Shown in pieces: positions 56,377 to 57,670 of a stretch of DNA of 64,000 bases; the stretch's first letter is position 1, and every line of letters begins with the position of its first letter. Source of the stretch: an uncultured Verrucomicrobiae bacterium. GTDB lineage: Bacteria > Verrucomicrobiota > Verrucomicrobiia > Chthoniobacterales > Xiphinematobacteraceae. The stretch is taken from NCBI GenBank assembly GCA_963706715.1, contig CAVPNI010000002.1:512001-576000 (forward strand), given 5' to 3'. A program made the position numbers and the translations under genes. The notes under the pieces are model-generated. The model saw only the letters and a program-made list of their open reading frames with translations, was not told where the DNA came from and did no database searches.

Positions 56377-57456
56377 ATGGCATCACACTGGCGGATTTTT
56401 GAAAAAACATCGGTTGCACCTAGGGTGTTTATGTTATTCACACGCCAATTGGCGACGCTGGTCGACTCCGGCTTTCCGCTCCTGGAGGGACTCGCCATCC
56501 TAAATCGCCAAGAAAAGGATCTCGTCTTACGGAAAGTCATCGCAGGTATCACGGAGTCGATTCGCAATGGGGAAACTTTTTCTGAAAGCTTAGTGAGATA
56601 CCCCGCAATCTTTGATAAATTCTTCATCAATATGGTCCGTGCCGGAGAGGTGGGAGGCGTCTTGGCTGAGACTCTCTTGCGCTTGGCGGAATTTCAGGAA
56701 AAAGCCCATAAGCTCAGAAATAAGGTGCGGGCGGCAACCGCATATCCTTGTACAGTGCTGATGGTAACAATCGCAATCGTATGCTTTCTCTTAGGTGTCA
56801 TCATCCCCAAATTCCAGTCTCTTCTGCCTGACATATTGGGGGATAGACCCCTTCCCGCCCTGACAATCTTTGTTTCTAATCTGGGCAAGTTATTTCAGTA
56901 TCACTTCCCAGGGCTGCTTGGCGCCTGTTTGCTTCTTTTGCTAGGCTCCCGATATGTTTTTCGGTTGCCAAGGATCAAGTATCTCTTTGATAGCTGGAAG
57001 CTCAAGGTCCCACTCGTGGGCAACCTCTCCCGCCAATATGCGCTTTCCTCCTTCAGCCGCACCCTCGGTATTTTGACAAGCAACAGCGTGCCCATTTTGC
57101 AAGGGCTGATCCTGACCCGTGAAACGGTTAGAAATTCTTATATTGCTGCTGCAATCGATCAAGTCCGGCGCGGCGTTCAGGCCGGAGAGCCCATCTGCCA
57201 CTCGCTGGCAATTCTGAATATATTTCCCCCTCTTGTCGTCAGTATGATTAGTGTCGGGGAAGAAACCGGTCGACTTCCTCAGATGTTGCTCAAGATCGCT
57301 GACATTTACGATGACGACATCGAAAATACTTTATCGAGCCTCACCTCTTTGATCGAGCCAGTGATCGTCATTTTTCTCGCGATCGCCGTCGGAATTATTA
57401 TCATCGCCCTTTTCAGCCCGATTATCTCGATTACCACTGATTTTTCCACCCCGTAG
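56377..57456 (+). CDS. Type II secretion / type IV pilus inner-membrane platform protein (GspF/PilC)
   Basis: FTRQLATLV.SG.PL, MVRAGE.GG.L, VGEETG.L..ML, LIEP. Confidence 0.92.
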   Translation: MASHWRIFEKTSVAPRVFMLFTRQLATLVDSGFPLLEGLAILNRQEKDLVLRKVIAGITESIRNGETFSESLVRYPAIFDKFFINMVRAGEVGGVLAETLLRLAEFQEKAHKLRNKVRAATAYPCTVLMVTIAIVCFLLGVIIPKFQSLLPDILGDRPLPALTIFVSNLGKLFQYHFPGLLGACLLLLLGSRYVFRLPRIKYLFDSWKLKVPLVGNLSRQYALSSFSRTLGILTSNSVPILQGLILTRETVRNSYIAAAIDQVRRGVQAGEPICHSLAILNIFPPLVVSMISVGEETGRLPQMLLKIADIYDDDIENTLSSLTSLIEPVIVIFLAIAVGIIIIALFSPIISITTDFSTP

Positions 57457-57496
57457 AGTCCTCGCTGGACGGGCAGAATTTTCGCCGGACGGACAA

Positions 57497-57643
57497 GTCG
57501 AGTCACCCGAGGGAACTTCCCCCTCAGGTACTCACAGAACCGAACGTGAGCGTCTCCACTCATCCGGCTCTTTCCATTGAAGCCCGTCCCCAGGCTTTGC
57601 TGACGTCATAGTAATCCTCCCTTTTTGCGCCTCCGTGGCACAC
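57497..57643 (-). ncRNA. Group II intron relic (5' end, IEP start, DV, DVI)
   Basis: Minus strand: GTGTG 5' end at 57643; GGGAGG and ATG at 57609 (MTSAKP); DV GAGCCGGATGAGTGGAGACGCTCACGTTCGGTTC (57570-57537); DVI ending ACTCGAC. Confidence 0.85.
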
Positions 57644-57670
57644 CGACTCCGCCTGCGTCCGGCAAGGACC

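Follow-up and report, generated by a model that had tools for sequence, protein, structure and literature searches.

A 147-nt, internally deleted relic of a class D-like group II intron in a cluster of REP-like repeats: a probable genomic fossil

Most copies of group II introns found in bacteria have been truncated or rendered inactive (PMC4424553; PMC2504315), and ORF-less introns have been described that keep remnants of the N- and C-terminal ends of the ORF around a DIVb deletion (PMC2882425). Internally deleted introns are likewise already in print: TeI3n of Thermosynechococcus elongatus carries a large internal deletion that runs from DId to DIVa1 (Mohr et al., 2010; PMC2882425). In class D, for which an RmInt1-like reverse transcriptase (RT) of about 419 aa without an endonuclease domain is described (PMC4615759), intron remnants and an internally deleted RmInt1 copy (nt 1520-1844) have been reported (PMC4181065). 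The pipeline of one large survey demands an RT or DI-DIV near DV (PMC8919778), so that miniature remnants with neither would be skipped, and this requirement may explain their rarity in catalogues. Our literature search found no functional or mobile mini group II intron in bacteria, with the proviso that supplementary intron tables may list such fragments.

The present locus lies in a window of 64,000 nt (the whole stretch of DNA that was analysed, whose positions are used below) from the genome of an uncultured Verrucomicrobiae bacterium, here called G000, with contigs C1 to C4. The sequence-only reading of this DNA had proposed a 147-nt mini group II intron with both ends retained, and the element was confirmed with the same boundaries: on the minus strand it begins with GTGTG at 57643 and finishes with AC at 57497, ends that are common to four ORF-less siblings in the same genome, one of which (C1a) serves as our reference.

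56377..57456, plus: gspF/PilC-type T2SSF gene (PF00482), convergent neighbour
57458..57496, plus: two tandem REP-like copies, one near consensus (57458-57476) and one degenerate (57477-57496), which make up the downstream arm of the flanking hairpin
57496, minus: first 3' exon base, T, the inferred IBS3; T also in 4/4 siblings
57497..57643, minus: the whole relic, an internally deleted class D-like (IIB) group II intron of 147 nt, from RF00029 and the siblings
57497..57535, minus: Domain VI, which has the bulged A and ends in AC; carries a private C-to-T at 57530 (C-G becomes U-G)
57537..57570, minus: Domain V, which has the AGC triad; carries a private C-to-T at 57543 (G-C becomes G-U)
57573..57592, minus: RT end remnant, after junction 2 (57593/57592)
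57593..57614, minus: RT start remnant, with ATG at 57609 and MTSAKP; resembles the start of the class D-like RT at C4:3599
57615..57621, minus: junction 1, 7-nt direct repeat GGGAGGA, from comparison with C1a
57622..57643, minus: intron 5' end, with GUGUG, the 5' strand of the DI basal stem and the start of the first DI hairpin, from the siblings and the consensus fold
57644..57650, minus: IBS1 of the 5' exon, GGAGTCG, from its pairing with EBS1 of C1a
57649..57669, minus: REP-like copy that contains a 2-nt insertion and makes up the upstream arm of the flanking hairpin
57671..58297, minus: Tm1382-like neighbour gene (PDB match 3E57, E 1e-21)
C1:594692-594019 (C1a, 674 nt), C2:335868-336544, C3:566607-567284 and C3:890409-889733: ORF-less siblings of 674-678 nt
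C4:3660-2277 and C3:53240-52622: 5'-truncated RT-bearing remnants with the same DV-DVI type

The covariance search against Rfam that had been suggested with that reading matched RF00029 at 57572-57497 (minus strand) with 54.6 bits (cut-off 40; E 5.8e-08) over all 77 model positions; the match covers the last 76 nt of the relic with no non-standard pair flagged, and both a DV with the AGC triad and a DVI with the bulged A are present, which bears out the claim of a complete DV followed by a DVI ending in AC. Both domains remain fully paired. Each of the private C-to-T changes replaces a G-C pair by a G-U pair and so keeps the fold, but this is also what the commonest mutation would produce, and we read in it no sign of selection. 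The 218-nt region made up of the relic and its flanks folds far more stably than shuffled sequence (z = -4.78; 0 of 200 shuffles equalled it), and a second fold calculation gave z = -4.63.

The first 29 nt of the relic are identical to C1a at 28 of 29 positions, and the SD-like GGGAGGA (57621-57615) and the ATG at 57609 are present, as had been noticed, joined to the 5' end and opening the frame MTSAKP. About ten codons had been counted between this start and DV; the part derived from the RT start comes to only about six (MTSAKP), with DV lying 13 codons after the ATG, and what can be read through the relic is a 25-aa junk frame in which MTSAKP is out of frame with the roughly 20 nt of RT end. 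Together the RT start and RT end remnants are predicted to form a 7-bp stem with a 4-nt loop, the collapsed base of DIVb. DI (with EBS1 and EBS3), DII and DIII are missing, 527 nt in all relative to C1a; no Rfam D1-D4 match was found in the window, whereas C1a has one. The description of a doubly deleted relic without DI stood, and DIV has collapsed. Classification as a functional group II intron was rejected for the missing DI-DIII, even though the boundaries, DV and DVI are those of an intron. The 5' end had also been credited with a small stem of its own, and here only the GUGUG end was borne out: in a consensus of eight introns nt 6-10 (CCACG) pair with the DI-closing strand in 8/8 sequences, a strand that is deleted in the relic, and since the native partner of these bases is the far end of DI, the small stem is a by-product of deletion and not a native fold.

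G000 is rich in group II introns, with at least 30 RF00029 matches, at least 25 of them above the cut-off, from the 150 of 206 candidates that were scored. A second multi-copy family, with near-identical RT and DV-DVI at about 15 sites, dominates the genome. The DV-DVI type of the relic occurs at seven loci: the relic itself, the four ORF-less introns and the two RT-bearing remnants. All four ORF-less siblings share the first 17 nt of the relic, so that the 5' end predicted for a parent is found in them, and they share most of its 3' end as well; over the last 82 nt the relic differs at three positions from three of them, at four from C1a and at six from each RT-bearing remnant. Three of the ORF-less siblings are 99.4-99.6% identical to one another, while their IS1-like flanks are 82-90% (5') and 85-99% (3') identical; those in IS1-like genes lie antisense to the transposase, and EBS1 of the fourth copy differs by one base, covarying with its target.

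The class of the family was read from a related RT of the same genome and not from the relic. This protein (P0001, on C4) has 419 aa, RVT_1 and GIIM domains and a TIGR04416 match above the cut-off; no endonuclease family was matched, and its identity to a Sinorhizobium meliloti LtrA is 67%. By eye it fits 6/8 fixed positions of the class D C-terminal motif LX3AX3PXLF[V/A]HW. Such features agree with the description of class D in PMC4615759, but with the motif at 6/8 by eye we use the label class D-like. Targeting by a 7-nt EBS1-IBS1 pairing likewise marks the family as IIB type and not as hairpin-seeking IIC. The sequences of the ORF-less class D-like family suggest recent homing in trans. A class D-like RT that combines a normal start codon with a ribozyme of its own was not found in the assembly, nor was an intact helper for the ORF-less introns. 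A broken twintron (C4:3660-1492) holds the sole full-length RT frame of class D-like type, nested in the RT gene of another intron; this frame has ATA at the expected start, and its 5' ribozyme has been replaced by transposase-like DNA.

The relic lies between two convergent stops and starts 27 nt past that of the Tm1382-like gene, in sense orientation. Neighbours of the gspF and NUDIX kinds had been named: gspF stands on the strength of PF00482, and the other gene matched no Pfam or NCBIfam family and a single PDB entry, Tm1382 (3E57), which we take to be a putative Nudix hydrolase. A DDE transposase gene (PF01609; 58636-59682, plus strand) lies just 5' of the Tm1382-like gene. As had been seen from the letters, the flanks pair with each other around the relic as a palindrome (the duplex is worth -36.1 kcal/mol for the minus strand and -30.4 kcal/mol for the plus strand), and the target does look REP-like: the repeat has 43 genomic matches with up to three substitutions against none in three shuffled genomes, and the insertion site is a cluster of three of its copies. 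Across its 43 sites this dispersed repeat of about 19 nt occurs singly and in tandem and inverted arrays; it is also present in the congener G001. Like the REP/BIME repeats that serve as targets of mobile elements, it is a dispersed repeat of some 20 nt in tandem or inverted clusters that has been struck by a mobile element; unlike REP/RAYT systems, G000 gave no match to a RAYT/Y1 transposase (PF01797), a search whose control was positive in 6 of 14 genomes. Only one of the five sites with known exons (the relic and the four siblings) is in a REP; the siblings are inserted elsewhere, three of them in IS1-like genes (a weak match, below the cut-off). Since no Y1/RAYT transposase was found and four siblings lie at other sites, the intron family does not look REP-specific, and its targeting of a REP here looks incidental. 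The empty site was not found among 40 relatives; in G001 the orthologues of the two neighbours lie on different contigs with other downstream DNA.

How the intron came to this site can be read from its exon. In the consensus fold EBS1 is a 7-nt loop in Id3, and no other stretch matches the 5' exon better than this loop in 4/4 siblings and in three of five introns from outside the genome (L055, L056 and L069); in another, L071, it is second best (6/7 pairs), and L057, whose register was off by one base, was not counted. L057:249-906 is an ORF-less class D-like intron on the unannotated Methylomonas plasmid CP157007.1. The relic's 5' exon, GGAGTCG, pairs with EBS1 of C1a at 7/7 positions (six Watson-Crick and one G-U), and 7-mers that pair as well and are followed by T occupy 176 of 6,087,016 genome positions. 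Because EBS1-guided insertion requires DI (PMC4424553), this pairing indicates that the intron most likely still carried DI at reverse splicing, and the most likely event is the homing of a DI-bearing intron into the REP-like cluster.

The subsequent loss of DI would fit one deletion. C1a contains GGGAGGA twice, at nt 23 and at nt 550, where it is the SD-like stretch preceding the RT start. Taking the 527 nt between the two copies out of the 674-nt C1a gives 147 nt, exactly the length of the relic; microhomology of at least 7 nt is available to 0.059% of the possible deletions of more than 100 nt in C1a. Deletion between the two 7-nt direct repeats is the likely cause of the loss of DI-DIII. 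Junction 2 has at most one base of microhomology against the available RT copies; its position is that at which RT start and RT end are predicted to pair as the DIVb stem, and the 7-bp hairpin that is left resembles those of the ORF-less siblings. The 42-nt DIV segment of the relic is more RT-like than in any of these siblings, which implies that the exact parent is not in the assembly; a search of G000 for a full-length direct parent found none, and beyond it a related RT (56-64%) turned up in 1 of 400 genomes of the class, related RNA in 3 of 400 genomes of the phylum (best G532, 77% over DI-DIII) and RTs of up to 64% in viral contigs, with no exact match there to the relic's 5' end.

The simplest history would combine loss of the ORF, homing with a helper RT and then a single microhomology deletion. 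In this sequence of events a deletion across the foot of the DIVb stem, like that of natural ORF-less introns, would have taken away the RT ORF, either before or after the element was reverse-spliced into the site via EBS1/IBS1, with the maturase provided in trans; replication slippage, recombination or an RT jump between the GGGAGGA copies would then have taken out 527 nt, whether during cDNA synthesis or later in the DNA, leaving the remainder to neutral drift. An RT-bearing parent that suffered two later deletions is possible too, in which case the exact match in length might be partly luck.

We therefore regard the element, with a probability of roughly 0.86, as a single-copy class D-like fossil that likely homed into a REP-like repeat in an ORF-less but DI-complete form, likely lost DI-DIII through the 7-nt repeats and is predicted to be unable to splice or move. 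The relic is single-copy in G000 and was not found in the 40 relatives and the 400 phylum genomes searched; 177 plasmid records match some part of it, none over 80% of its length, and its two junctions recur at no other site in G000 or in the other collections searched, so that no MITE-like copies were found. The sequence-only reading had itself held that a lone, unexpressed copy would be just a fossil, and the copy number agrees; its other suggestion, a retained functional mini-RNA acting as terminator, trans-acting RNA or decoy, is not supported, given the single copy, the failure to find it in the relatives searched and the want of a terminator-like site. The relic is probably transcribed, given that it lies in sense behind a gene, and some activity is conceivable. 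It is nevertheless improbable that relic and REP hairpin together form a co-opted 3' UTR, a roadblock, processing or stabilising element between the convergent genes: the strong predicted fold and the position just past a stop would suit such a role, and co-option of intron remnants has been hypothesised (in PMC4181065), but terminator-like sites (a G+C hairpin followed by a U tract) number zero on either strand of 57300-57900, the REP arms need no relic in order to pair, the fold comes down from the parent and nothing of it is conserved in the relatives searched. Collapse of a longer intron copy during assembly would be a natural worry in a genome with many near-identical intron repeats; its probability, however, appears very small indeed. 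A 151-nt record of a soil metagenome run (X1) equals 57520-57670 with 0 differences and 0 gaps and spans the 5' boundary and both junctions, which argues against such collapse, although this support amounts to one record at depth 2 from a run that may be the source material (X2, X4 and X5 gave no junction coverage), and the DIV segment and the two substitutions occur in no other copy in the genome.

Splicing or mobility might still be conceived through trans-complementation, with DI-DIII RNA of a sibling docking on the relic's 5' strand and DV-DVI, much like the middle piece of organellar tripartite introns. Of the pieces of a tripartite intron the relic retains exactly the 5' one and the 3' one, its exon matches the EBS1 of a sibling, and the siblings look recently mobile in trans; the breaks of tripartite introns do fall in DI and DIV, and IIA introns of bacteria have been split experimentally, as PMC4424553 relates. 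Even so we hold this to be highly improbable, more so than a role in the 3' UTR, since there is one copy only, the relic interrupts no gene, no class D-like RT with a normal start and its own ribozyme is assembled, the other minis found are also single-site, and no separately encoded DI-DIII piece is evident in G000, where one orphan DI fragment covers nt 182-479 only, at 84%. Least credible, on a par with the artefact, is a decoy RNA that would titrate maturase and damp the mobility of the siblings. Part of DIV near the RT start is kept, and maturase binding to DIVa is stated as a potential of class D introns in PMC4615759, but DIVa is cut by junction 1, the relic is single-copy, our literature search found nothing on such decoys, and no promoter-like site of its own lies 5' of the relic on its strand, the single match (57448-57421) being past the element.

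Relics of similar design were sought with a generic pattern that demands a GTGTG start, then a spacer of 31-91 nt and a DV exactly of the class D type, and that can miss other minis. The sole match among the genome contigs, L059, was rejected as a chance GTGTGC inside an RT end, and viral contigs gave 0 matches. Metagenome contigs gave nine stretches; eight of them represent a single locus, in which the downstream DNA is shared and the 3' end has decayed. That locus (L060-L066 and L068; match 1001-1123) is a class D-like mini relic of about 160 nt that adjoins a gene stop ahead of a broken kinase gene; in L060 the upstream DNA differs from that of the other seven contigs, joined at CTAG. The ninth, L067:540-371 (minus strand), is an independent mini of about 170 nt made of a 17-nt intron 5' end, the last RT codons, DV and DVI. 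Its 5' end is identical over 17 nt to a Sinorhizobium intron and is joined to the RT end, apparently at a 6-nt microhomology as judged against a distant relative. Two unrelated minis whose junctions differ, each at a single site, fit repeated independent decay and not a conserved mini-RNA.

As a fossil the relic matters little. It records one route by which an intron dies, with ORF loss across the DIVb stem and then a microhomology deletion that fused the 5' end to the ribosome-binding site of the RT and left both ends in place, and it does so in a genome marked by an ORF-less class D-like family that has apparently spread recently with no intact helper assembled. Larger importance would follow only if trans-complemented splicing were shown; the relic would then be a natural two-thirds intron, matching in bacteria the tripartite introns of organelles, and a living stage on the way to intron domains that act in trans as snRNAs do.

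Among the systems described, the group III introns of Euglena resemble the relic in size (90-120 nt), in keeping both boundaries and in having lost the core, but as PMC4424553 describes them they lack DV, keep parts that resemble DI and DVI, occur in large numbers and are removed from essential genes by splicing, whereas the relic keeps DV, lacks DI, is single and is intergenic. FRE652, a remnant within the RmInt1/RmInt2 type of class D, IIB introns, retains DI-DIII and has lost its 3' end, so that the relic, with both ends and no core, is its complement. With the RmInt1/RmInt2 type the family of the relic shares a related 419-aa RT without endonuclease, EBS1/IBS1 targeting and intergenic remnants (PMC4615759; PMC4181065). 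TeI3n has the same two-step anatomy, loss of the ORF from DIVb and an internal deletion (PMC2882425); it differs in belonging to the CL/IIB1 lineage and in a deletion that starts later in DI and keeps more of the 5' sequence. Set beside these, the relic is likely a dead copy, an ordinary kind of genomic debris and not a new miniature RNA.
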